The notes under the pieces were generated by a model that was not told where the DNA came from, searched no databases, and saw only the letters and a program-made list of their open reading frames with translations. DNA of 64,000 nucleotides. Source: a virus. Taxonomy: Duplodnaviria; Heunggongvirae; Uroviricota; Caudoviricetes. Of the stretch, positions 4,163 to 43,351 are shown one piece after another. Both the position numbers and the translations under genes were made by a program. The number at the start of each line of letters is the position of its first letter. Positions within the stretch are counted from its first letter, which is position 1. The stretch covers positions 1 to 64,000 of IMG/VR virus record IMGVR_UViG_3300044878_000059, one strand, 5' to 3'.

Positions 4163-4545
4163 TCGATATCATCCATGTGGTGGGCGTATTGCAGGAACCG
4201 GGCACGTTTCTTGGCCTTGAGTGCATCCCAGTCGGACGCATCAATCACACCGTTCTCAATCAATAGATCGGTCATGGCTGCGATGTCGGCAAGTTCGGAT
4301 GTCAGGTTTGTTCTGTTGGTTACCGACAAAGCGTCGGTTGGTTTGCGGGAGTCCAAGCCATGGCGAAGAATCTTGCCAATGACTTGAACGACTTCGCCGC
4401 ATTCCTCTGATGTACCGCCGATCAACTCAAGTTGCTTCGGGGTCAGGTTGTTGAAGTGTCTCAATGAAGCCAGCCTTCTTTCGATAGAATTCGACGGCAT
4501 TCGGGATCGCCAACCATTCAGTATGATGGAATCCGGCCTTGTCAT
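4159..4545 (-). CDS. MazG-like nucleotide pyrophosphohydrolase-like protein; start uncertain
   Basis: ELIGGTSEECGEVVQV...E...D acidic-helix pattern; N-terminus overlaps 4427..4894. Confidence 0.3.
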   Translation of the reverse strand: MTRPDSIILNGWRSRMPSNSIERRLASLRHFNNLTPKQLELIGGTSEECGEVVQVIGKILRHGLDSRKPTDALSVTNRTNLTSELADIAAMTDLLIENGVIDASDWDALKAKKRARFLQYAHHMDDIE

Positions 4546-6562: not shown

Positions 6563-7201
6563 TTAATAGATTGGGTCTGTAAGTACCAGTTGCATGTTTC
6601 GTTGCATCCAGTTCTTACCGTGGCAGTCGATGTTCACCTTGGAACCTTTCCCAGCCATCCAGATTACGATGTCGGCCAGATGTGTATGACTATAGCCACC
6701 AACCCAACGCAAGTCAAACCACTTTTTCAAATAAAAGCCGATTCGTTCGTGCTTTCTTTTCCGGGTCAGGTTCATAAGACCGAATACCGGTGAACGCACG
6801 GCCTGAACCACGTCAAACATACCAACACTGTGTTCAATGCAGGCATCTTCCAACAGTTCCATCCGGGCAATACACCACCCGTGGCTTTCATGCAGTTCGT
6901 AGATTTTAGGCAGCATTGGGTTCGATTGCCAATTTTCCATGGCATAACGAGCGTAAACAGACCATTTGTCGTTCGGATCATGGGTGACTTTGATTGCTTC
7001 ACCCTTCCAACGGAACACGACCGAATATGCACCAGAACCCAGAACCCGAACACCTTCACGACAGATGTTGAAGATCAAATGTTGCTTGTCAACCGGTCTG
7101 TCCTTGAAATGCTCGAACATGAACGCCGGGATGTCACCGAATCGACCGTATGTGAACAGTTTTGCTACTTCAATGTAGCGATCAATGATTACTTCTTCCA
7201 T
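6563..7201 (-). CDS. protein kinase-like fold protein (212 aa)
   Basis: Gly-rich loop LGSGAYSVVF followed by AIKV lysine, and DCHGKN catalytic-loop-like motif. Confidence 0.45.
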   Translation of the reverse strand: MEEVIIDRYIEVAKLFTYGRFGDIPAFMFEHFKDRPVDKQHLIFNICREGVRVLGSGAYSVVFRWKGEAIKVTHDPNDKWSVYARYAMENWQSNPMLPKIYELHESHGWCIARMELLEDACIEHSVGMFDVVQAVRSPVFGLMNLTRKRKHERIGFYLKKWFDLRWVGGYSHTHLADIVIWMAGKGSKVNIDCHGKNWMQRNMQLVLTDPIY

Positions 7202-8118
7202 GAAAAACTGTTCCCTTCCACCAGTTGATACGATTTCGACGTTGCAAATGGGTCATTCAGTACCGGAATACTGCCGCGAACCATGATGTTGTAATCACCC
7301 AGATCATCGGATTCGGATTTGGTCTTGATTGCAGTTGCATCAAACACCTGCGAAATCTGAATCAGAGCTTCCCGGTCGATGGCAGCCATGAGAACAAAAG
7401 TCTCATATTCCATCATTTCGGAAATGTACTCCCCGAAGTTCAGTTCGGGATGATACGATTCAGCCAAATCACGGAAGCAACCGCCATCCGGGGCCGACAG
7501 GTCGTGGTTTTCAGCCAGCGATTCAACAACCATCGCATAGTGACGACCACTTTGATACAACCCTTCGATCTTCGGTGCGAAGATGTTGCCCTGAATCTCG
7601 GTGCAGGCTTTGGCCCAATCAAAACCGCCATCGTCGCCCCAGATATAATCGTCGTCGGCAATGTTCATTTTGATAACCAAGTCGTCGCCAAGATCATACG
7701 CAACGCTGTACGAACCGCTTCCGAGTTCTGGGAAGTGGCTTTGCATCACGGTACGGATGAAATGACGGTCAAGGCCGGGGCCACGGTTCGGGCCTTCGCT
7801 GCCCACCAGACCGGTTTCATCGCCTTCGAAGTCTTCACCAAGGGTTTCTTGGCTGGCATACTGCGAAAACAATTGTATCAAAGCTTCGGGGATGTCACGC
7901 GGTTCCATAGCTTTGATCGACTCCATCGCATCGTTACAATGCTCCTGAGCTTCCACCCAGCGGTCGATTTGAACTTCGGCTGGTGCCTTGAACTCCACAG
8001 GGAATTCAATTGTATCAATTACCCGTGGTGCCAGCTTTTCCATAACCGGCTGGTACATATGGCACACGTCCAAGTCAACAAACGGACGTACTTCGGCCAA
8101 AGCTTGCTCTACAACCAT
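7189..8118 (-). CDS. protein kinase-like fold protein (309 aa), paralogue of 6563..7201
   Basis: LGSGSYSVAY...VIKM and DYNIMV motifs; acidic. Confidence 0.45.
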   Translation of the reverse strand: MVVEQALAEVRPFVDLDVCHMYQPVMEKLAPRVIDTIEFPVEFKAPAEVQIDRWVEAQEHCNDAMESIKAMEPRDIPEALIQLFSQYASQETLGEDFEGDETGLVGSEGPNRGPGLDRHFIRTVMQSHFPELGSGSYSVAYDLGDDLVIKMNIADDDYIWGDDGGFDWAKACTEIQGNIFAPKIEGLYQSGRHYAMVVESLAENHDLSAPDGGCFRDLAESYHPELNFGEYISEMMEYETFVLMAAIDREALIQISQVFDATAIKTKSESDDLGDYNIMVRGSIPVLNDPFATSKSYQLVEGNSFSWKK

Positions 8119-8183: not shown

Positions 8184-8663
8184 TCAGTTATTTTCCAACA
8201 GTTTCTGTGCCCGGTCAAGCTCCAAATACGAGATTTGGTACTTTTTCATGCGGCTGATGTCATTTTCTGTAACACCTTTCAACCGGGTCAGGCTGGAATT
8301 GTGTTTGATGTCGCCCTTCTTGATCTTGATCAGGCGCAAATCATTGGTAGCAATGATCCGTGCGATGAATTCACGATACGATTCGTCAGGGCGACGTGTC
8401 AGTTGATCGACCAAATGCAGCAACGAAACCTTGTTGTATTTCATTGCGATGTTGATCAGACGTTCCATGTATTCTGGTTTGTCTTCTTTCAGGTCGTGGG
8501 CGAATGCAGCGGCCAAATAGGTATCGCCACCAACGCCCATATGACGGGCATTCTCCATAACGGCAAAGCAATGCAGCACGTATGGACGACCACCTTTGTC
8601 AGTCACGTTAGCGAATGCTTCCGAAACCAACGCAATTACTTCACCAAGGAGAGTTGCCATCAC
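8184..8663 (-). CDS. HD-domain hydrolase, small alarmone hydrolase (SpoT/Mesh1)-like
   Basis: RPYVLH...AAFAHDLKED pattern matches the RelA/SpoT HD hydrolase core. Confidence 0.5.
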   Translation of the reverse strand: MMATLLGEVIALVSEAFANVTDKGGRPYVLHCFAVMENARHMGVGGDTYLAAAFAHDLKEDKPEYMERLINIAMKYNKVSLLHLVDQLTRRPDESYREFIARIIATNDLRLIKIKKGDIKHNSSLTRLKGVTENDISRMKKYQISYLELDRAQKLLENN

Positions 8664-9329: not shown

Positions 9330-9342
9330 TTGTTTCGTTCCT

Positions 9343-9390
9343 TATGAGTTCAATTCTATAGCAACACACGAACAGAATAAACATTCACTC
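9343..9390 (-). promoter_or_regulatory. phage promoter with GAACAGAA half-site
   Basis: AATGTTTA N17 TATAGA; TTCTGTTCG in the spacer. Confidence 0.5.
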
Positions 9391-9528
9391 GAAATAAACC
9401 TCTGTAAGCGTTTATATGGCGAGCGAAAGCCTACCGCGTATGTTGGGGTGCAGTTTGATATAAACCGGCCCAAAACGGATTCTGGGCGGTTCTAGAGCTA
9501 TGCAGTAAAGGTGTAGGTGATATTTGAG

Positions 9529-10134
9529 TCAGGAAAACTCAAAGAACTCTGACAGGACGCCAGAGTTTGAAGACGTGTCCATGCGATGCAGTACATCCGT
9601 AAGCCCCATACGTTCTAAGATGAACGAGAAAAATTGTTGTTGGTCTTGTTTTAACCATAGGTTAAAGGTGGGAATACCTTTCGCCCGCGCAAGATTAAAC
9701 GCAGTCGCTGTGCCACCTTTGACACTAACTCCGGCTGGTGGTGCATATGCTGCAACAACATCGGTCTTACTTTTCAAATCCAGTCCTAGGATTTGAAAGA
9801 CGTTACGGGTGTGCAACGCTTGGGCATATTCATCTAGATTTTCCCATCTAGGGTGAACTTTGCTTGCGATGTCTTCCGCGTCGAGCCATATATCACCATA
9901 GTCGCTGACGTGGCCGCAAGTAGAATCTTTTGCGATAAAACTAGAAGTTCCCTTGACAACGTAAATTTCCTTTGTATCAAAGCCCAACCACCCATTTTCC
10001 CATGCGGTGTCACATCCAATAGCCCCGCCAGACCGCAGGTTCCAGCCCTGCCGTGCCATTCGTCGGGCAATCTGATACAACATATCAAAACCGCGTTGAC
10101 TGGGATATCTGGTGCCTATCCCGGTCACGATCAT
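9529..10134 (-). CDS. SLOG-family Rossmann protein (DprA/YpsA/LOG-like)
   Basis: MIVTGIGTR...SGGAIGCDTAW...GGTATAFNLARAKGIPTF pattern typical of the DprA/SLOG Rossmann fold; internal Met chosen so the start overlaps the NADAR stop. Confidence 0.5.
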   Translation of the reverse strand: MIVTGIGTRYPSQRGFDMLYQIARRMARQGWNLRSGGAIGCDTAWENGWLGFDTKEIYVVKGTSSFIAKDSTCGHVSDYGDIWLDAEDIASKVHPRWENLDEYAQALHTRNVFQILGLDLKSKTDVVAAYAPPAGVSVKGGTATAFNLARAKGIPTFNLWLKQDQQQFFSFILERMGLTDVLHRMDTSSNSGVLSEFFEFS

Positions 10135-10586
10135 TCGGCGGTGCCTCGATCCCTGAGCCGGGTCAAAATCCCACAAAATTCGCGTTCGGTAAGCACCGTA
10201 TAACTCTGATCACGCGACCCGATAGTATGGGTCAGGGTCATACCCTTAGTTGCGTCCAGTGCTGCCCGAAATTTGACGTTCTCGTACAAGCTGCAATAAG
10301 CACGCCATAAAAGGTTCCTGTATTCCGGTGAATGTCTGCCTATAGGGCAACCCTTCCACCACAGTGTTTGAGCTTGACGCCAAGCCTTGTTTCGTGCTTT
10401 GCCTCTGAACTTCGCAGCCTTGCCGATCAACTTGCAGACTTCAACTTGAATATGGGGCTTGTCAAACTTGAAAGACTGTAGTAGCCCTTCCATTGACGCA
10501 CATTCAATTCCATCAAACGTAAACCCGTGACCAGCAAAGTTGGAAAGGGCTGAACTAGGCCAGCCGTTCCCACCTTGGATATTCAT
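10131..10586 (-). CDS. NADAR (YbiA-like) domain protein
   Basis: SNFAGHGFTFDGIECASMEGLLQSFKF matches the YbiA/NADAR core SNF...DG...SxEhxxQxxKF. Confidence 0.55.
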   Translation of the reverse strand: MNIQGGNGWPSSALSNFAGHGFTFDGIECASMEGLLQSFKFDKPHIQVEVCKLIGKAAKFRGKARNKAWRQAQTLWWKGCPIGRHSPEYRNLLWRAYCSLYENVKFRAALDATKGMTLTHTIGSRDQSYTVLTEREFCGILTRLRDRGTAE

Positions 10587-10858
10587 TGTGCGTCGATCTG
10601 CGCTTTGATTATATCAATCAGGTCATCGGGATCAGTGCAACCACCCTTCATATCATCCAACATCTGATGCAGTTTGATAGGGTTTATCAACTGAATGACC
10701 ACGTTTTCTGTTTGATCAGCGAATTGCGAACCTTTCTGACGGCAGTAGGAATATCTGGTTTTCGCATTCCGTTCTGTTGAAACGACTTCACACCACTCGG
10801 CTAACTTACCGGTTTCTTTGTTGGCGACGATGAAGGCTTGTTCTTTTATTCTGTTCAT
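10583..10858 (-). CDS. hypothetical protein (91 aa)
   Basis: ORF coupled to the NADAR gene. Confidence 0.4.
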   Translation of the reverse strand: MNRIKEQAFIVANKETGKLAEWCEVVSTERNAKTRYSYCRQKGSQFADQTENVVIQLINPIKLHQMLDDMKGGCTDPDDLIDIIKAQIDAQ

Positions 10859-10915: not shown

Positions 10916-12265
10916 TTACTTGGTAACGGACATGTCCAGCATCAGGTCTTTTGCAGCTTTGATACCCATCATGTTCAACATGTTGGTTACTTCGCTTTGA
11001 CGACCGCCAGCTTCACCGGCACTACCCATCACGATCTGTGGAACTTTGGCGTGTTCGATTGCGTTAGCCATAACTTTCTGGCCTTCCAACCAAGTGTTCA
11101 GCTTCTGAGTCAAAGCACCGTCCGCCATGATTACCGCTTTCTTGGCATACGCCTCGGCTTCGGCTTTCTCTTTGGTGGTCTTGGCATCGATCAGAGCCTG
11201 TTCGTAACGAACTTGAGAAGTTTGTTTCTCAATTTCCGCTTGTTCCTTCTGACGGTTGGCATTGGTTACAGCCAGACGACGTTCGGTTTCAGCGTTGGTG
11301 GTACGTTCGGCTTGGTCACGCAAAACAAACTGACGTTTGATTTCGGTTTCCATTTCACCTTTCGAGGTAGCCAGTTTCTTTTGTTCGTCGGCAGTCTGAC
11401 GACCTTGGCGAGCAATAGACAGGTCAGCTTGCGACTGTTGTACAGCTTTCATGCGCTCTTTGAACTGAGTCGAAGGATCGATGTTCACGATGTTCGCATC
11501 AGCTACGGTCACACCCAGTTTCGAGAACTGACGTTCCAGACGTACTGGCAGACCAGTTTTTGGATCAATGACCTTTTCAGTGGTCACAACGGTAGTGGTA
11601 TCACCGCCGTATTCGCCTTGGTCTTTACCGTCCTGAGCAACAGCACCAGCGGTTGCAGGGCGGGTGTTCTTCACTTGAGTTTCAACACGTTTTACAACGT
11701 ATGGGCCGTCAGTGATTTGGTCTTGGAAGCTTTGACGGAAACCAGTCGCGCCGCCGTTGTAGTAATCGTCAGCCGACATCAACTGTGCAGTCGATTGCAG
11801 CGTGGATTTCATGACGGGCATGATCGATTGCAGAACAAAGTTGTCCGGTGTACGGTAAGTACGGGCCAGTTGCAGGAAGGTTTCGCCACCCGGCAGAGCC
11901 ACACGAACGTTCGCATCAACGGTAGCAACAACACCACCGAGGAAGGTTACCGGGAAGGCTGGAATCAAACTCGAACCCAGACCGTCGAAGTCGCCTTTTG
12001 GCAGAGTCGAAACGTCTTGAACAGATTGCACAGACATTTGACGCGGCCATGGAACGTAGTTACCGAAACCGATCCATGTATAGCCGGTGGTTTCAACCAC
12101 CTTTTCACCTTGGAACGGGAACTTGGTCGTTACTTGCGTGATGTAACCGGCGTTGTTGTAGTAGAACATTTGGCTGAACATCAACCAAGAGAACAACAGT
12201 GCGATCACCGCACCAATACCAGTTACAGCCAGCTTGTTTTGTTTCAGATTGTCAATAACGGACAT
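10916..12265 (-). CDS. SPFH/band-7-like membrane protein with long coiled-coil
   Basis: N-terminal TM helix, SPFH-like core, extended charged coiled-coil (QADLSIARQGRQTADEQKKL...). Confidence 0.45.
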   Translation of the reverse strand: MSVIDNLKQNKLAVTGIGAVIALLFSWLMFSQMFYYNNAGYITQVTTKFPFQGEKVVETTGYTWIGFGNYVPWPRQMSVQSVQDVSTLPKGDFDGLGSSLIPAFPVTFLGGVVATVDANVRVALPGGETFLQLARTYRTPDNFVLQSIMPVMKSTLQSTAQLMSADDYYNGGATGFRQSFQDQITDGPYVVKRVETQVKNTRPATAGAVAQDGKDQGEYGGDTTTVVTTEKVIDPKTGLPVRLERQFSKLGVTVADANIVNIDPSTQFKERMKAVQQSQADLSIARQGRQTADEQKKLATSKGEMETEIKRQFVLRDQAERTTNAETERRLAVTNANRQKEQAEIEKQTSQVRYEQALIDAKTTKEKAEAEAYAKKAVIMADGALTQKLNTWLEGQKVMANAIEHAKVPQIVMGSAGEAGGRQSEVTNMLNMMGIKAAKDLMLDMSVTK

Positions 12266-12449: not shown

Positions 12450-12680
12450 TTACGCGACCCAGAACAGCGCACCTTCCAGCTTGACTTGCACGATGTCACG
12501 CACGTAGTCAGCAACAGAACTGGCTTCGTTTGATGCAAACAGTTTGTTGACCACGATGTTCAACACCCCGTTCATATCCCACTGGGTAGGGATCACGCCA
12601 CTTTCCCACACGTTGTACATGTGCGGGTCAACCTGAGACACAGCAAAGCGGAAAAACTCATTCTCTGATACTTCACGCAT
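12450..12680 (-). CDS. hypothetical small protein (77 aa, internal start)
   Basis: the ORF N-terminus is an out-of-frame overlap with the MPE gene; Met71 start overlaps the MPE stop. Confidence 0.35.
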   Translation of the reverse strand: MREVSENEFFRFAVSQVDPHMYNVWESGVIPTQWDMNGVLNIVVNKLFASNEASSVADYVRDIVQVKLEGALFWVA

Positions 12681-13470
12681 CGTAATAACTCCGGTCAAGG
12701 AAGGCCACATCTTCGCCTGCATAACCATACGGGTTACAGATGACGTTGGTACAGCCAATGATATAATCGCTTGGGTGATGGATATGACCATGCAGCCAAT
12801 GACTAATCTGTGGGTGCATATGAATGAAATCATCCAAATCACTGTGGTAGCCGTGGTTCCCGTCGATATCCCACGCAAACGCCGGGTCAAGGCTTTGTGC
12901 GCTTGGTGCGTGGTGGGTTACGACGATACACGGTTCATCGGAGGCTTCGACGGTTTCCGCGATGTACGAAAGGTCAGCCTTGTGTTCCATGATCCAGTGA
13001 TGCGGTTTGAACTTCTGATAGTTCTGTCTGGTTTGATGGTAATAGGTGATTGCCTTGAAATCGTTCATCACTTGACCAAGGTGGAATTCCACCAATGGAT
13101 TTTGACGATGCATGTTCGTCCAGAGCGTTGCCCCGACGAATCGAATTCCATCAATCACCACAGAGTCACGAATCAGGAAGTGAATGTTGGTCAGACCTTC
13201 CGGGTTCATGGTTTCAAACTTCTTGCGTGCAGCATCTGGATCGATTCGATAACCGTAGTATTCGTGGTTACCGGGAACGTACACAACTGCTTTGAAGCGT
13301 TTTGCCATTGCTGTTAAGGCACTGGCGGATTTCGCGGCCCGTTTGAGCATCGTGAAATCCCCGGCGATGACCAGCACACGGTTTTCATCACCACCCAGAT
13401 ACGGCAAGGTATATTGGGTTGTTTCGTGATAGAACTCGTTGTGGACATCGGATATCAATCTGAATTCCAT
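12673..13470 (-). CDS. calcineurin-like metallophosphoesterase
   Basis: DVHNEF...GDF...GNHE motifs. Confidence 0.6.
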   Translation of the reverse strand: MEFRLISDVHNEFYHETTQYTLPYLGGDENRVLVIAGDFTMLKRAAKSASALTAMAKRFKAVVYVPGNHEYYGYRIDPDAARKKFETMNPEGLTNIHFLIRDSVVIDGIRFVGATLWTNMHRQNPLVEFHLGQVMNDFKAITYYHQTRQNYQKFKPHHWIMEHKADLSYIAETVEASDEPCIVVTHHAPSAQSLDPAFAWDIDGNHGYHSDLDDFIHMHPQISHWLHGHIHHPSDYIIGCTNVICNPYGYAGEDVAFLDRSYYDA

Positions 13471-13544: not shown

Positions 13545-15014
13545 TTAGACAACTTTGATGTCGTCGAACGTCCATTCGGTCAGGAATTCGCCGTCTTCCC
13601 AGACGGTGTACATCTGATCAACGATCTTGTGATTGGTCAGTTGCAGTTCTTCACGATCAGAGAAGAATTTCCCGTCCTGATCTTTGAAGGTTACCACGCG
13701 ACCTTTCTTGGAACGTTTCACCGAATCGGTGTCCGGGTCTTTGAACAGATCACGCCATTCGCCGTTTACGCAGAGCGCAGACGCTTTCATAGCGAACTTG
13801 AACCAGTCACGATCACAGTGTTGCAGCAAAGCACCACCCATACCGAACACGATGTTATCGGCAGAGTATTCCAGTGCGAACATGTTGGCATAGATACCAC
13901 GAACAGAAGCTTCGTTGATACCGTCACCTTGCAGCACGCGGATGCAGCTTGGCAGAACCTTGTAACCTTTGCTGTTGACAGTGTAGCCGAAGCCTTCCAT
14001 CAGAATACCGATGATCTTCACCGGGATTTCCAGAGGATTCCCAGAGTCCGGGCGTACTACGAAAGTACCACCAGAATTCATCACGCGGGTCTTGATCGGA
14101 TCGCTGGCAACCCAACGTGCGAAACGTTCGATGCTGTAGGTATCACCCACACATGCAACGATACCGCCGTGTTTTTCCAGCAACTGAACGGCCATTTCCA
14201 GAGCGTCAGAGTCATCGCGGTTGTCGGCATCGGAGTTTGCGCAAACAACAGAGTGTTCAGTCGCACGCACCGAGTAGGCAGGCATTTGGCCTTTCTTCAA
14301 GCCGTAGTATTCTTTCAGTTCGATGATGCCCTGAATTGTATCAGTGCCCATCCAACCGGCTGCGAGGTGTGCAGCACCGCCGATACGGGCGGATTCGTTG
14401 CTCGACACGCCACGGAAGCCGAAGTCGTGCAGTTTGAAGCGACTTTCAACGCCGTCATCGACGGTCAGTTCGAAAGCTTGCTGAACCACTTTGCGGATGC
14501 TGTACGAAACAGAAGCCACGGTGGTTGGATACCAGACTTGCAGGAACAGAGGTTCGAAGTACGAAACCAGCCATGCGAAATCCGGGTGGGTGTTTTCCAC
14601 GGTCATCATGACGTTACCGGTTGGAACAATAGTTCCTTCCTTCAACGCACGAATACGCAGCGGCAGACGACCTTTGAACTTGGTGACGATGGTTTCCCAA
14701 CCTTTACGGTTGAAGACACCCGGCCCCATGTGCAGTTCGACCAGTTCTTCGGCTTCGTCCACATCCTTCATGGTCAGACGACCAGAGAAGTGACGTTTCA
14801 GAATGGCTTGCAGGCCGATGAAAACCGTTTCGGTGTAGCCTTGATTCACACCACGAACAACCCACTGATCGGAACCACGCGATTCCACGTAGGAATACAG
14901 GTAGTTGGCACCAGCCGGGAGCATTTCCCAGTGTGGGATTTTGTACGAATCCGTTTTCAGGATCATGTTGTTCGGGTTGAATTCTACTTTGTTCATATCA
15001 AACATTGCGCCCAT
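13545..15014 (-). CDS. nadV: nicotinamide phosphoribosyltransferase (NAMPT)
   Basis: 489 aa, full-length similarity to NAMPT/NadV (phage KVP40-type). Confidence 0.85.
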   Translation of the reverse strand: MGAMFDMNKVEFNPNNMILKTDSYKIPHWEMLPAGANYLYSYVESRGSDQWVVRGVNQGYTETVFIGLQAILKRHFSGRLTMKDVDEAEELVELHMGPGVFNRKGWETIVTKFKGRLPLRIRALKEGTIVPTGNVMMTVENTHPDFAWLVSYFEPLFLQVWYPTTVASVSYSIRKVVQQAFELTVDDGVESRFKLHDFGFRGVSSNESARIGGAAHLAAGWMGTDTIQGIIELKEYYGLKKGQMPAYSVRATEHSVVCANSDADNRDDSDALEMAVQLLEKHGGIVACVGDTYSIERFARWVASDPIKTRVMNSGGTFVVRPDSGNPLEIPVKIIGILMEGFGYTVNSKGYKVLPSCIRVLQGDGINEASVRGIYANMFALEYSADNIVFGMGGALLQHCDRDWFKFAMKASALCVNGEWRDLFKDPDTDSVKRSKKGRVVTFKDQDGKFFSDREELQLTNHKIVDQMYTVWEDGEFLTEWTFDDIKVV

Positions 15015-15040
15015 CTTTTTGAACTCCTCAAAAATTGAAT

Positions 15041-16105
15041 TTAGTTGCGTGCAGCGGAACGACCAATCATGGTCATAATGATACTGTGATGATCCTCGAA
15101 GAACTCAGTTGCCTTTTCAGGCTTCGTGATGTCCGCGATTGGAACCCAGAACGCTTTATCGGCGTCGTCGGAACCGTAGACCCGTGGCAAACTACCGTCG
15201 TGATTTGTATCAATCTTGAAGGTGTGTGCAAAGGTCATCAGGCGACCACGCAGGGAACGTTTTGGATTATCAAACAGTTTCATGTCGATAATCGATTTGC
15301 GAAGCACCTTTTCAGGTACATGCAGTTTTGTTTCTTCGAACAGTTCGCGGATTGCTCCATCGAATACTGTTTCATCCGTCTGGACGAACCCACCGGGGAG
15401 AGCCAGTTGCCCTTTGCCGGGGATGTTCTTACGACGGATCAACAGAATGTGGCTTTTGCACAGAACAACAGCATCGGCGGTCACATCGTTGATTGGGTAT
15501 TTCTTGCGGCGGTTTTCCGGGTACGACTTGTGAAAGCGATACTCGGCCATGATGTTACGGAACAGTTCAGTACCAATGTACTTGGTATTGATATATTCCC
15601 AAACCATGTACGGCATCATGCTTCCGGCTTCTTCAAACTTGCCATCGAACATAAGTTCGCGGATTTTGGTTGCTGCCATTTCATCGTCGCCGTGCATCTT
15701 CGCACCGGTTTCAACGAAATCCCACGTAGGGAACAGGTCGAGATAGAAACTCGATTCGTCTTTCTTGTGTCCGACGATAGCGATTTTCTTGGTGCTGCAC
15801 ATGTCGTTATGACGATCCGCAGCATTCATGACCGCCGCTGCCCACAGTTCGTTGGACGGCATGTCGTTCATGAATTCCCATGTGATGTTCTTCGGCTCTG
15901 TCAACCCGTTGGTCGCATGGTACAGCATTTGTTCGCGTTGATCGTTGGTGAACGGATTGCGTTCGTCGCGTGGTGCGTTGGCACTACCGAAAAGCACCAG
16001 AACATGGTCTGCAATGCTTGCGGCGTGTTTGATATTTTCCAAATGGGCATCGTGCAACGGTGCCATCCGACCAATGAATACAGCGAGTTGATATTTCTTT
16101 GACAC
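15041..16105 (-). CDS. natV: bifunctional NMN adenylyltransferase / Nudix ADP-ribose pyrophosphatase
   Basis: N-terminal HxxH nucleotidyltransferase (GRMAPLHDAHL) and C-terminal Nudix box (GAIRELFEETKLHV). Confidence 0.85.
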   Translation of the reverse strand: MSKKYQLAVFIGRMAPLHDAHLENIKHAASIADHVLVLFGSANAPRDERNPFTNDQREQMLYHATNGLTEPKNITWEFMNDMPSNELWAAAVMNAADRHNDMCSTKKIAIVGHKKDESSFYLDLFPTWDFVETGAKMHGDDEMAATKIRELMFDGKFEEAGSMMPYMVWEYINTKYIGTELFRNIMAEYRFHKSYPENRRKKYPINDVTADAVVLCKSHILLIRRKNIPGKGQLALPGGFVQTDETVFDGAIRELFEETKLHVPEKVLRKSIIDMKLFDNPKRSLRGRLMTFAHTFKIDTNHDGSLPRVYGSDDADKAFWVPIADITKPEKATEFFEDHHSIIMTMIGRSAARN

Positions 16106-16699: not shown

Positions 16700-16960
16700 T
16701 CACTTGCAAAACAGTTCGAACAGAGCCGGTTTGATTAAATTTTGTTCATGATGCTCGAACCAACCCATGGGCGGTTTGTCTGCATGAATCAACAAACAGA
16801 ACGGAAGGTCATCGGGTGTCCAATACATCATGGCGTAACCGTGATATCCGAAGCCAATGCCAGAGTATCTGGTTACGTCCATGAGATATTTGGTAACGAA
16901 AGACCCCCGCCGTTCCTCGACAGGGGTATAGATCATGCTGCGTCGATCAGGTTCAACCAC
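16700..16960 (-). CDS. hypothetical protein (86 aa)
   Basis: ORF. Confidence 0.35.
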   Translation of the reverse strand: MVEPDRRSMIYTPVEERRGSFVTKYLMDVTRYSGIGFGYHGYAMMYWTPDDLPFCLLIHADKPPMGWFEHHEQNLIKPALFELFCK

Positions 16961-17988
16961 TGACCACGGATGGTCAACGCGGTGTGGGCACCGACACGCT
17001 TAGCCAGCAACGACCAGTTTTCATCTTCGGTCAGCTTGTAGCCTTCGTCTTTCTCGAAGTCTTCCAGAGCATCACGGGTCAGATCACCTTGCAAACGCCC
17101 GAAGTCCTTCTGGGTGATTGTGCCGATCTTTGATACAACCGCGTTCAGACGGTTGGTGTTGATGTACGAACAGATTTTGTCCAGCTTGGCTTGGGTTTCT
17201 TCGTCCAGAGTCGCAGCCGTCTTGATCTTGACTTCCTGTTCTTTCTCGTTGAACAGCTTGTTCTTCTGTTTCAGGATCACACGTTCGCCGTTGTCGGTAC
17301 GGTAATCGTCGGTGTAACCACGGATCACAAAGCCTTCGCCGTAGTCAGCTTCGGTACGGGTATGATTTTCATCAATCCCGAAGGCCGCTGGAACCTTGGT
17401 GTAGATCAACGGATCGATTTTGATCAGTTCTTCCAGCGTGCCGATGGCGATAACCGGTGCGGTTTTCAGATGACGGTTGCTGTTCGGTTCCATGAAGTTC
17501 GCGTCTTCCAACAGTTCTTGGATGTCAGCAAACGGAATGTAGCGAGCAACGCCGGTATCGAATTCCAGACGGATATCAAACACCATGAATTCGTTATCAG
17601 GGTGGTAGTTCATGCCGGACTGAACCTGCTTGGCACCAGTGTTGGTGACGCCTTGGTAACGACCACCGAAGATTTCACCGTAGACCGTCATCAGTTTCAG
17701 GGACGGGAACGAATCTTTGACCATTTCATAAATGGTACGGATGGTTGGTTCGTAACGGCTGTAGAAGCGGGTGTGGCCGTAGAACGTTTCGAGTTCGCTG
17801 ATCAGACCAGAACGTTTTGCAACGCGGGTCTTGCTGTCATCCATCACGAACGCGAAGTTAGCACCATGGATTTTTTCCACGGCGACAAGCACGTTGTTGC
17901 CAACTGCGAACGCGCATTTGTCCAAGAACGCTTGACGGTAAGAGTTCTCGATGGAGTTGTATTTGGTAAAAACGATTTTGTCGCTCAC
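16933..17988 (-). CDS. rnlB: RNA ligase 2 (T4 RnlB-like)
   Basis: KIHGANF motif I (KxHG); colinear with T4 Rnl2. Confidence 0.8.
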   Translation of the reverse strand: MSDKIVFTKYNSIENSYRQAFLDKCAFAVGNNVLVAVEKIHGANFAFVMDDSKTRVAKRSGLISELETFYGHTRFYSRYEPTIRTIYEMVKDSFPSLKLMTVYGEIFGGRYQGVTNTGAKQVQSGMNYHPDNEFMVFDIRLEFDTGVARYIPFADIQELLEDANFMEPNSNRHLKTAPVIAIGTLEELIKIDPLIYTKVPAAFGIDENHTRTEADYGEGFVIRGYTDDYRTDNGERVILKQKNKLFNEKEQEVKIKTAATLDEETQAKLDKICSYINTNRLNAVVSKIGTITQKDFGRLQGDLTRDALEDFEKDEGYKLTEDENWSLLAKRVGAHTALTIRGQWLNLIDAA

Positions 17989-18652: not shown

Positions 18653-19515
18653 TAGAAGTTACCAAGTTGAACTTGGTAGCAACGCAGCCCCATTGCCCGC
18701 CACATCGCAACAACTTGGTTGCGGTCGTCGAATACACCCTTGACGTTGTAGAACGGATCGATATCGCGATGGTAGATATCGTGCTTGATGATCGAATCAC
18801 GCACTGACGATCCCGCAGGACGCATCAGAAGCTGATCAAACGGCATGTCGTACTCATCCATCCACCGTTCGGTTTCCGCACGGCATACAGCGTCACGGCC
18901 ACTTACAACGATGATATGGTTACCAGCGTCGGAAAGCGTTTGAGCCATTTCGATCACGTCGTTGTATGGAGCGTCTTTGCCGACTTTCTTCCAGTCGAAC
19001 GGCCCACGAACGCCTTCCATGTTTGCAATGGTTCCGTCGATGTCAAAGACAAAGGCCGGGGTGCCACCGTCAGCATTGGTGTTCTGCAACGGGAACTGTT
19101 CGCGGTACTCGGTATAGAACCGGGTTACAACTTTGTCGTCTACCACTTTGGACTGTTCATCACGATTACGGTTACGTTCGATCAGATCATCCAAGAGCAA
19201 ATTCGCTCCAACATGGATGACATCAACTTCCGAACCCATGGACGAACAGAAGCGAATCCATTTGTTACGAGTTTCTTCGTTGATGCAAGTGTCAGAGATA
19301 ACAATGTTTTTACCAGCAAGTAATGCTCTACGCGCACGTTCAATTTGAACTGCCGTAACTTTGTTTTCATCAATGTTGCCGCCGTACCAAACACCGTAAA
19401 GCTCCATCCGAATAAGGTCACGCTCAAGTTGAACATAACCTTTATTCACAAATTGACGGGCGAGGGTCGATTTACCAGAACCCGGTACACCCATCAAGAT
19501 TTTAGTTTTCCGCAC
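18652..19515 (-). CDS. pseT: polynucleotide 5'-kinase / 3'-phosphatase
   Basis: P-loop GVPGSGKST and HAD phosphatase motif FDIDGT; colinear with T4 Pnk. Confidence 0.8.
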   Translation of the reverse strand: MRKTKILMGVPGSGKSTLARQFVNKGYVQLERDLIRMELYGVWYGGNIDENKVTAVQIERARRALLAGKNIVISDTCINEETRNKWIRFCSSMGSEVDVIHVGANLLLDDLIERNRNRDEQSKVVDDKVVTRFYTEYREQFPLQNTNADGGTPAFVFDIDGTIANMEGVRGPFDWKKVGKDAPYNDVIEMAQTLSDAGNHIIVVSGRDAVCRAETERWMDEYDMPFDQLLMRPAGSSVRDSIIKHDIYHRDIDPFYNVKGVFDDRNQVVAMWRAMGLRCYQVQLGNF

Positions 19516-20641
19516 TATCCTTTTCGAACTCCTTCAAAATATAATCGTTGGCATGGCTGATCATCAATTGCTTGAGTTTCGCTTCCAGACCTTTCCCGTT
19601 TCGCAAAGACATCTGCACATGGAAACCCCAATGACCGCTGTAAAACTCCATGGCTTTAAGCGCATAGTGTTTTGTATCAAGGTGGTTCCAAGTGGTATGA
19701 AACAATTCTACCATTTGGACTGTCTTGTTATAAACATTCGAAATGGATACTTCGTAGGCATTGATTTTTGCCAACACCTGTTCATCACCGACGAACAGAG
19801 ATTTCAGGTCATCGACCTTTTCCATCAACACCAGCTCAATCAGAGCCTTGGAGTTTGATACAGAGTCTTTGTTGCGATGCAGACTCAGATACCAATCACC
19901 CTTGAGCTTGAACGGTACGCCGCTTTCAGTGATGGCAACCACGCCTTCACCACCGACCATGTTCTTTACCACTTCGATCAAATCGCCGTCGTATTCGAAC
20001 TGTTCGACCCAGTGCCCGAGCAAATCCCAGAGTTCCATGTCTTCAACGATATCGCTGCCGTACATGATCCCGGTTTCGTTGTCGATCACGGACAGACCAA
20101 CCAGACCCGGTTTCTCATACCCAACAACGATACGGTTCCATGGTGCAGTCCATTCCAGATTGACAGTGAAATCCCGTGCAGCCAGACGGCGCAAATCAGC
20201 CAGCAACGCCGGTTGAGTTTTAAGGAATTTCATTGCATCATTGGCCTGTTCGGAGCCGGTAGACCCCTTGGATTTCAGCCGCAGTTCGCCATTCGTATGG
20301 ATATACGTTGACATCAGTGAGCCGTCTTCCTTGACCATGCAGGAATACAGGTTGGTCAGATCAAGACCCATGGTCATTGGGTTCTCGTTCAGGTTGAAGA
20401 ATTTCTTCTGTGGACGGCAAACCAAATCCACATACGAACCATCACGACCTACCAGAAACATTGTTCCACGGCATTCCAATGCACTAGGCAACAGGAAGTC
20501 GGTATAGGACGCCAACCGATAGTTGAAAATCCGATACATTGTTGTTTGCTCGTCCGATGGGAAGTCCTTGAAAAAGAACGCATCGGATTCGCAGAGTGCC
20601 AACAGGTTTTGATACAAAACTTCTGGGGCCACGTTGTTCAT
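19502..20641 (-). CDS. rnlA: RNA ligase 1 (T4 gp63 RnlA-like)
   Basis: colinear with T4 RnlA (YRIFNYRLASYTDFLLPSALECRG, KEDGSL lysine motif). Confidence 0.8.
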   Translation of the reverse strand: MNNVAPEVLYQNLLALCESDAFFFKDFPSDEQTTMYRIFNYRLASYTDFLLPSALECRGTMFLVGRDGSYVDLVCRPQKKFFNLNENPMTMGLDLTNLYSCMVKEDGSLMSTYIHTNGELRLKSKGSTGSEQANDAMKFLKTQPALLADLRRLAARDFTVNLEWTAPWNRIVVGYEKPGLVGLSVIDNETGIMYGSDIVEDMELWDLLGHWVEQFEYDGDLIEVVKNMVGGEGVVAITESGVPFKLKGDWYLSLHRNKDSVSNSKALIELVLMEKVDDLKSLFVGDEQVLAKINAYEVSISNVYNKTVQMVELFHTTWNHLDTKHYALKAMEFYSGHWGFHVQMSLRNGKGLEAKLKQLMISHANDYILKEFEKDSAEN

Positions 20642-43275: not shown

Positions 43276-43351
43276 TGGTGCGTCTGACGGGACTCGAACC
43301 CGTGGCACAGGAATTTAGAGTTCCCTGCTCTGCCAACTGAGCTACAGACGC
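43276..43351 (-). tRNA. tRNA with anticodon CUA (putative amber suppressor)
   Basis: clean cloverleaf: acceptor GCGTCTG/CAGACGC, D GCTC/GAGC, anticodon stem GGGAA/TTCCT, loop CTCTAAA (U33, A37), T ACGGG/TTCGAGT/CCCGT, A73, CCA. Confidence 0.6.

Follow-up and report, generated by a model that had tools for sequence, protein, structure and literature searches.

In the genome of an uncultured tailed phage, a gene for a NADAR-family protein runs directly into a gene for a protein of the SLOG superfamily, and the question that this locus raises is whether the two constitute a dedicated two-protein system or are neighbours of a looser kind. The genes lie in a window of 64,000 nucleotides (the whole stretch of DNA that was analysed, positions 1 to 64,000 of IMG/VR record IMGVR_UViG_3300044878_000059). 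An earlier note, made from the sequence alone, had read them as a translationally coupled pair that could reverse DNA ADP-ribosylation by DarT-like toxins or process cyclic ADPR signals. The two ORFs are indeed present where that note had placed them, and both are on the minus strand, the strand being a detail that it had not given. The NADAR ORF (10586..10131, minus strand, 151 aa) begins with an ATG and ends with a TGA at 10133..10131, and the SLOG ORF (minus strand, 201 aa, N-terminus MIVTGIGTR) extends from an ATG at 10134 to a stop at 9531..9529. Between them, the plus strand at 10131-10134 reads tcat, i.e. ATGA on the coding strand, which agrees with the overlap of about 2 nt originally described, in that the TGA and ATG codons share 2 nt and the coding sequences overlap by 4 nt. 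A SLOG start at TTG 10176, present in the ORF list as an alternative, was rejected, and the ATG at 10134 is the likely start, because the N-termini of homologues begin flush at MI(V/I)TG. Judging from homologue counts (631 for NADAR and 49 for SLOG in a word-indexed database search), the 6183 SLOG cluster representatives considered below and the strongly conserved motifs, both ORFs are clearly real genes. Rfam and tRNA scans returned no match in or beside the gene pair, whose features are the following.

10131..10586, minus strand: gp30.3/AdfN-type NADAR gene, 151 aa, predicted guanine-ADP-ribose DNA glycohydrolase (Pfam, PHROG, identity to T4, structural model)
9529..10134, minus strand: stand-alone DprA-like SLOG domain gene, 201 aa (phrog_768, motifs, fold)
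9529..9609, minus strand: SLOG C-terminal tail, a poorly modelled linker and then the clade-specific VLSEFFEFS (model, clade alignment)
10131..10134, minus strand: ATGA overlap of NADAR stop and SLOG start (sequence; 2 nt shared by the codons, 4 nt by the coding sequences including the stop)
10144..10147, minus strand: GAGG, a putative Shine-Dalgarno-like element 9 nt 5' of the SLOG ATG and within the 3' end of NADAR

The NADAR protein belongs, as proposed, to the NADAR family, and within it to the gp30.3/AdfN subfamily (PF08010, phrog_652). Its match to Pfam PF08010 (Phage_30_3) has an E-value of 7.7e-53 and a score of 178.5 bits (cutoff 36), and spans profile positions 1-138 of 138; phrog_652 is matched at E 1.6e-41, and T4 gp30.3/AdfN at 40% identity over its full length (E 3e-30). 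Residues E33 and K40 align with E36 and K43 of the T4 protein, and across 36-38 homologues no variation occurs at E33 or H120 and little or none at K40. The AF2 model (pLDDT 92.2) places H120 in the last strand, the phage-type position; a last-strand His marks phage NADARs, YbiA having Glu there and BC4488 having Asp (PMC11125620). With Foldseek, the top PDB matches of the model were YbiA 2b3w (E 3.7e-4, TM 0.66) and the Phytophthora PnNADAR-ADPr structure 8bau (probability 0.90), beyond which this search of the PDB gave no other meaningful match. A NADAR profile search likewise reaches YbiA 2b3w (E 0.016); direct phmmer searches of PDB sequences with either NADAR or SLOG gave chance matches only, and profiles were needed. 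Every feature of membership that was tested in sequence and fold was found, namely PF08010, the YbiA/NADAR alpha+beta fold and the Glu/Lys/His set.

The T4 homologue has been studied experimentally. Its guanine-ADP-ribose hydrolase activity has been demonstrated in vitro (Toxins 2024, PMC11125620), and gp30.3 has since been renamed AdfN, for anti-DarT factor NADAR (Nat Commun 2025, PMC11825919), after it proved both necessary and sufficient for the resistance of T-even phages to DarTG1; its catalytic residues are E36 and K43 (PMC11825919). The reversal of DNA ADP-ribosylation of the DarT type, raised at first from the sequence, is then the demonstrated role of AdfN (PMC11825919, PMC11125620), and the catalytic residues are kept here. 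By extension from T4, the window NADAR, which is of the AdfN type, would hydrolyse ADP-ribose off the guanines that DarT1-type toxins modify on phage DNA and would so restore replication. The two proteins share PF08010, phrog_652, the catalytic Glu and Lys and the last-strand His, are nearly equal in size (151 aa in the window, 152 aa in T4), and are both encoded among the early/accessory genes of a T4-like phage. They differ in that the host of the window phage is probably Pseudomonas-like rather than E. coli, and in the downstream neighbour, which is the SLOG gene in the window and the unrelated gp30.2 (phrog_420) in T4. The notion that gp30.2 might itself be a SLOG, which would make the pair ancestral, was rejected, gp30.2 belonging to phrog_420 and showing no similarity.

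For the second protein, assignment as a DprA-like SLOG likewise held, and profile searches placed neither protein in an unrelated family, the outcome that the earlier note had named as counting against it. The SLOG protein matches phrog_768 ('DprA-like') at E 7.9e-51. Its Pfam match, PF02481, reaches 27.1 bits, under the cutoff of 29.6, and covers residues 6-59 only; TIGR00732 is matched at 26.1, under a cutoff of 191. A Rossmannoid fold in which strands 1 and 2 are each followed by a Gly-rich loop, together with a GGT-type loop, places the protein in the SLOG superfamily, within which DprA is its best fold and profile match. Invariant across the family are G7 and R9; S35, G36, A38, G40 and D42; H108, R110, N111, Q114 and G117; G140, G141, T142, T144 and A145; and N158. 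DprA domains that bind ssDNA carry the signatures G-S/T/A-R and F/L/Y-x-x-R-N/D, which have been contrasted with the PGGxGTxxE motif of LOG proteins (Wang et al., PMC3950713). The first of these signatures is represented by G7-T8-R9, in which G and R are invariant and which aligns to the GTR of HpDprA (motif G50-R52). The pattern of the second is matched by L107-H108-T109-R110-N111 (F140-N144, in helix alpha6, of HpDprA), with H, R and N invariant; this segment lies within helix 102-116 and corresponds to FPRRN of E. coli Smf by its order along the chain, not by residue-level superposition. The motifs as a whole are collinear with GSR...FPRRN...SGSLVTA of Smf. Because hhalign and hmmsearch, run with the SLOG profile against E. 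coli Smf, align the N-terminal ~46 residues only, the equivalence of the second motif is drawn from collinearity and fold. The LOG motif PGGxGTxxE with its catalytic Glu was not found, the corresponding segment being KGGTATAFN, which has no acidic residue in 35 of 35 family members.

It is concluded that the window protein is a SLOG superfamily member that is most like DprA, and is neither a canonical DprA nor a LOG-type hydrolase. Bacterial DprA/Smf proteins (e.g. HpDprA 4ljk and RpDprA 3maj) share with it the Rossmann-like SLOG fold, the first pocket motif and, by pattern and collinearity, apparently the second, and its SGGAxGxD loop and GGT..TA motif stand in the same order along the chain as their counterparts in E. 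coli Smf. However, the 201 aa comprise a core domain, a helical insert and a tail, with neither the SAM nor the winged-helix domains of DprA/Smf, and further differences lie in the sub-cutoff Pfam score, the helical insertion, the additional invariant His and Gln, and an acidic-aromatic C-terminal tail specific to the clade. It is because of the score below cutoff, the single domain and the helical insert with its extra invariant His and Gln that the protein is not considered a canonical DprA. The idea that the SLOG processes cyclic ADPR found no support; it is a published speculation, and the conserved G-T-R and L-x-x-R-N are DprA-like rather than LOG-hydrolase-like. Literature searches found no experimental report on a phage SLOG of this kind.

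How tightly the two genes are linked was assessed by concatenating NADAR and SLOG as a pair query against 50,697 phage records, adjacent genes being joined as one place. The concatenated query matched 2355 records, with both halves together in only two, the Pseudomonas phages Milchi and Astolliot. As single queries, NADAR was found in 1510 and SLOG in 1483 of the 50,697 records, the latter family also accounting for 6183 clusters at 50% identity (full HMMER scan with the SLOG profile), and ~550-640 phage genomes have the two genes at separate places. In IMG/VR, NADAR was absent within 4 kb at all 80 SLOG loci, and SLOG was nearby at one of 80 NADAR loci, that of a close relative (L092) with 87% NADAR identity and a 15-nt spacer between the genes. 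The pair is retained, usually with a 4-nt overlap, in relatives of 47-91% SLOG identity; that overlap is seen in Milchi and in relatives from metagenomes whose SLOG identity is 47-56%. In three syntenic loci (L004-L006), the order is metallophosphoesterase, SPFH, small ORF, SLOG, small ORF, secreted protein, HD and kinase-like, and NADAR is absent; in such NADAR-less relatives SLOG opens with a TTG that shares bases with the stop codon of the small ORF before it (as TTGA in L004). When neighbours were counted at 54 non-redundant SLOG loci, each neighbour family occurred in three loci at most. NADAR is a facultative cassette at this site, present in some relatives and missing from others, and SLOG is a mobile stand-alone gene. 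Since adjacency is rare and NADAR is missing from syntenic relatives, the association of the two is loose and facultative, and the claim of a coupled pair, taken as a conserved operon, is not borne out by the neighbourhood analysis, which confines adjacency to one small phage clade. Overall, the coupled-pair reading has partial support.

The closest cultured relatives of the window phage are Milchi (PQ464597) and Astolliot (OM982621), which have the same gene block as the window (metallophosphoesterase, SPFH, small ORF, NADAR, SLOG, small ORF, secreted protein and HD) but differ in showing 52-58% protein identity in NADAR and SLOG and no match at the nucleotide level. Because a megablast of the region against the 50,697 phage records gave no match, these cultured relatives included, the window comes from a distinct uncultured lineage. 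An identical NADAR occurs on a 140-kb JGI contig.

The overlap itself is open to an ordinary explanation. By a crude greedy ORF call, 4-nt overlaps of the NTGA type occur at 13 of 90 consecutive minus-strand junctions in the window, and the neighbouring junctions upstream (10583-10586) and downstream (8660-8663) are also of this type. NADAR is missing from syntenic relatives, and in a close relative 15 nt separate the two genes, so that the ATGA overlap amounts to operon packing of an ordinary kind rather than the sign of a dedicated two-protein system; it may still confer some translational coupling of NADAR and SLOG. The surrounding features are these.

8184..8663, minus strand: HD-domain metal-dependent phosphohydrolase gene, downstream (phrog_990, E 6.6e-36)
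9468..9487, minus strand: terminator-like hairpin 3' of the SLOG stop (consensus scan; weak T-tail)
10583..10858, minus strand: 91-aa gene, overlapping the NADAR start by 4 nt and lying directly before SLOG in NADAR-less relatives
10916..12265, minus strand: SPFH/Band-7 gene, first of the presumed transcription unit (PF01145, E 5.7e-10; phrog_11908, E 1.8e-60)
12431-12403 and 12348-12321, minus strand: promoter-like sites (consensus scan)
12673..13470, minus strand: calcineurin-like metallophosphoesterase gene (PF00149, E 1.3e-10; phrog_1649, E 1.4e-50)
13532-13507, minus strand: terminator-like hairpin after NadV (consensus scan)
13545-15014, minus strand: NadV/NAMPT gene (Pfam NAMPT_N and NAPRTase)
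15041-16105, minus strand: NadM-Nudix gene (Pfam CTP_transf_like and NUDIX)

Pattern matches suggest a transcription unit that would start from the promoter-like sites at ~12.4 kb, take in SPFH, the small ORF, NADAR and SLOG, and end at the hairpin at 9487-9468. The 91-aa upstream gene has no Pfam or PHROG match, and the HD phosphohydrolase is syntenic in Milchi and in L004-L006. NadM-Nudix and NadV (13545..16105; phrog_395, phrog_1198 and phrog_448) form an NAD+ salvage pair of the NARP2 type.

Fusions of NADAR to Rossmann-type domains, which the earlier note had invoked, have been published (PMC9503650), and they were recovered here for the window's own SLOG family. They were sought among the best 150 of the 6183 cluster representatives from the SLOG profile HMMER scan. 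Among these 150, two proteins (P0257 and P0265) are NADAR(PF08719)-SLOG fusions with the same N-to-C order as the genes of the window, two (P0170 and P0171) are polyvalent proteins of ~1480 aa that combine several SLOG-type domains with a NADAR at the C-terminus, and four (P0279, P0284, P0227 and P0246) are DUF4326-SLOG fusions. The SLOG of P0265 is 36% identical to that of the window (E 3e-28). The NADARs of the fusions are of a different subfamily (PF08719), and BLAST finds no similarity between them and the window NADAR. That the locus holds a programmed frameshift, or a fusion gene that was split recently, was rejected because the fusions found elsewhere carry that other NADAR subfamily and because relatives have a spacer or lack NADAR. 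These fusions of the window's SLOG family are real domain-level evidence of a functional association between NADAR and SLOG. Associations among viral NADAR, SLOG, Macro and DUF4326 domains, and of NADAR with nearby NadV and NadM, have been described by Iyer, Burroughs, Anantharaman and Aravind (2022, PMC9503650). The window resembles that picture in the adjoining NADAR and SLOG, in the fusion of its SLOG family to NADAR and DUF4326, and in the NadM-Nudix and NadV genes a few kb upstream on the same strand. In contrast to the placement there of most viral SLOGs in a YpsA-like clade with predicted action on cADPR-like signals, the closest solved relatives and the motifs of the window SLOG are those of DprA, and adjacency is limited to one small clade.

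Taken together, the preferred reading, given a probability of about 0.7, is that the locus holds an AdfN-type NADAR and a DprA-like SLOG binding module that are co-directional, probably co-transcribed and loosely associated, and that do not form an obligate two-component system. Both lie in the accessory part of the genome of a T4-like phage to which Milchi and Astolliot are related. The SLOG appears to retain the nucleotide-base pocket motifs of DprA (G-T-R and L-H-T-R-N), lacks the catalytic glutamate of LOG and, for these two reasons, is read as a binding module rather than a hydrolase, with ssDNA or an ADP-ribose-type nucleotide as its probable ligand. It would work in one NAD/ADP-ribose counter-defence guild with NADAR and with NadV and NadM-Nudix close by.

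The C-terminal tail bears on where such a module might act. SLOG residues 181-191 have pLDDT <50, and the tail that follows this linker is kept in clade members (P0001-P0021), in the form SLDDFFEFE in Astolliot. It resembles ASLDFLFG of T4 gp43, PSLDFLYEAND of T4 gp55 and the tail of the window phage's own polymerase, EISLEDFM; the T4 gp43 and gp55 tails are the gp45-clamp-binding peptides. A loose regular expression for the motif matched 32 of 247 SLOGs and five of 316 neighbouring ORFs, most matches coming from one clade. A more novel but unlikely reading is that the SLOG of this clade is a replication-fork factor, in which the DprA pocket would bind ssDNA or a flipped, possibly ADP-ribosylated base, the tail would dock on a gp45-type clamp, and the protein would cooperate with the AdfN NADAR in locating or tolerating DarT lesions.

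Several other explanations were weighed. It is rather unlikely that NADAR and SLOG form an obligate two-protein system, a split version of the fusions acting in complex or sequentially on one substrate, with the DprA-like domain binding ssDNA or an ADP-ribosylated base and so targeting NADAR to DarT lesions. The shared N-to-C order of the fusions, the persistence of the pair, mostly with its 4-nt overlap, at 47-91% SLOG identity, and the fact that ssDNA is both the DarT substrate and the partner whose bases DprA motifs bind would all accord with it, but syntenic relatives have SLOG without NADAR, ~550-640 phage genomes hold the two genes apart, T4 AdfN functions beside a gene 30.2 that is no SLOG, and the NADARs of the fusions (PF08719) are of another subfamily. 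Also unlikely is a minimal DprA recombination mediator that loads UvsX/RecA on ssDNA, the adjacency with NADAR being accidental. Both ssDNA-binding motifs (the second by pattern and collinearity), the ranking of DprA as top fold and profile match, the rarity of the adjacency among phages and the likeness of the tail to the clamp-binding peptides of T4 replication proteins speak for a mediator; nevertheless, the SAM and C-terminal domains of DprA are absent, UvsY already serves as mediator in T4-like phages, and the recurrent NADAR and DUF4326 fusions indicate ADP-ribose chemistry over general recombination.

Roles in countering specific defences have their own difficulties. That the SLOG is an enzyme or sponge against ADP-ribose-derived immune signals, such as the gcADPR of Thoeris, follows a proposal for viral SLOGs (Iyer et al. 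2022) and is improbable here, as ThsA ranks below DprA, Moco carrier and LOG proteins in both fold searches, the LOG-type catalytic acid is missing, the conserved residues fit the DprA motifs, and the literature searches yielded no experiment on a phage SLOG of this kind. An orphan antitoxin mimic of the DprA-like antitoxins ShosA and PsyrA, neutralizing the PRTase toxins ShosT and PsyrT and so paralleling AdfN as an orphan DarG1-like antitoxin, is very unlikely. The window SLOG has in common with ShosA (8zva) and PsyrA the DprA-like SLOG fold, the setting of phage-bacterium conflict and a weak PADLOC match, but that match to ShosA (E 9e-8) covers residues 3-44 only, which is the generic SLOG N-terminal motif, and ShosA is no nearer than ordinary DprA in fold searches. 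Moreover, ShosA is larger than the 201-aa protein (a PADLOC model of 303 positions and a PDB chain, 8zva, of 308 residues) and requires dimerization and RecA contact through regions that are missing here. The ORF list, Pfam and PHROG revealed no adjacent PRTase toxin gene, the neighbours of SLOG being NADAR and small ORFs. Highly improbable, too, is a role against Avs in the manner of phage ORF83, which is annotated as DprA/Smf and is reported to block Salmonella Avs3. The window SLOG does have R110, N111, T142 and T144, and its family also includes DUF4326 fusions; on the other side, going by the description of ORF83, its best match is LOG whereas that of the window SLOG is DprA, and the acidic residue D114 is Thr in the window SLOG.

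Both kinds of gene and their co-occurrence are already in the literature, and the locus is a new example, not a new system. Its NADAR adds a fairly divergent AdfN-type anti-DarT enzyme from a non-enterobacterial T4-like lineage, which is useful but expected, and its overlap carries a caution that, in phage genomes, a 4-nt overlap alone does not prove a dedicated gene pair. The main value of the locus lies in its DprA-like SLOG, whose family is very common in large phages. The locus, Milchi and Astolliot, the variants with and without NADAR, and the fusions to NADAR and DUF4326 together offer a handle for testing whether these proteins bind ssDNA, ADP-ribose-derived ligands or both. The tail, if real, would put SLOG at replication forks, which is where the substrates of DarT arise, and a role as a fork factor, if true, would give a family present in ~3% of the phage genomes sequenced its first function and would account for the recurrence of NADAR-SLOG fusions.

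At the site corresponding to the NADAR/SLOG junction, three syntenic relative loci, L004 (3867-4561), L005 and L006, have no NADAR gene, and their SLOG genes begin with a TTG codon that overlaps the stop codon of a small upstream ORF (cttTGA). These loci and the pair described here are natural variants, without and with NADAR, respectively. In a close relative whose NADAR is 87 % identical (L092, a 183-kb contig), the overlap between the two genes is replaced by a 15-nt spacer (4448-4468). The two domains also occur within single polypeptides. Two proteins from metagenomic contigs of 95-139 kb, P0170 and P0171, which were matched by profile search with the SLOG family of the window, are giant polyvalent proteins of ~1480 aa that contain two or three copies of that family, along with YAcAr and LDcluster4 SLOG domains, and have NADAR at the C-terminus.

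The surroundings of the pair include the following features.

10916-12265, minus strand: SPFH/Band-7 protein, 449 aa, first gene of the presumed transcription unit holding the pair
9529-9609, minus strand: C-terminal tail of SLOG (residues ~176-201), with VLSEFFEFS after a low-confidence linker
9330-9528: non-coding gap of 199 nt, 3' of the SLOG stop
9487-9468: terminator-like hairpin inside this gap
7189-8118, minus strand: 309-aa protein, weakly matching the T7-type protein kinase PHROG (E 0.0026)

The SPFH/Band-7 protein is highly conserved in relatives (identity up to 81 %), more so than either NADAR or SLOG. The VLSEFFEFS tail is clade-specific, and it resembles both the clamp-binding tails of T4 gp43 and gp55 and the polymerase tail of the same phage (EISLEDFM, 32083-32106). 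The gap is unusually long for so tightly packed a region, and a search of it against Rfam gave no match. Further along, the gene for the 309-aa protein lies downstream of an HD phosphohydrolase gene and is kept in Pseudomonas phage Milchi as well as in L004-L006.

About 30 tRNA genes form a block elsewhere in the window.

41635-63301, minus strand: tRNA gene block
43276-43351: tRNA with anticodon CTA, labelled 'Pyl' by ARAGORN (Rfam tRNA, 69 bits)

The latter would be a phage-encoded tRNA of the amber-suppressor type.

Genes for NAD+ metabolism and RNA ligation are found upstream of the pair.

19502-20641, minus strand: RNA ligase, Rnl1/gp63-type
16933-17988, minus strand: RNA ligase, T4 Rnl2-type
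15041-16105, minus strand: NadM-type NMN adenylyltransferase fused to Nudix
13545-15014, minus strand: NadV/NAMPT
13532-13507: strong terminator-like hairpin after the NadM-Nudix/NadV genes

Both RNA ligase genes are near the NAD-salvage genes, and RNA ligase 2 adjoins the DprA-like SLOG gene in several Klebsiella T4-like phages. Together, NadM-Nudix and NadV/NAMPT (13545-16105, minus strand) constitute an NAD+ salvage pair; such pairs are a means by which phages rebuild NAD+ in the face of NAD-depleting defences.
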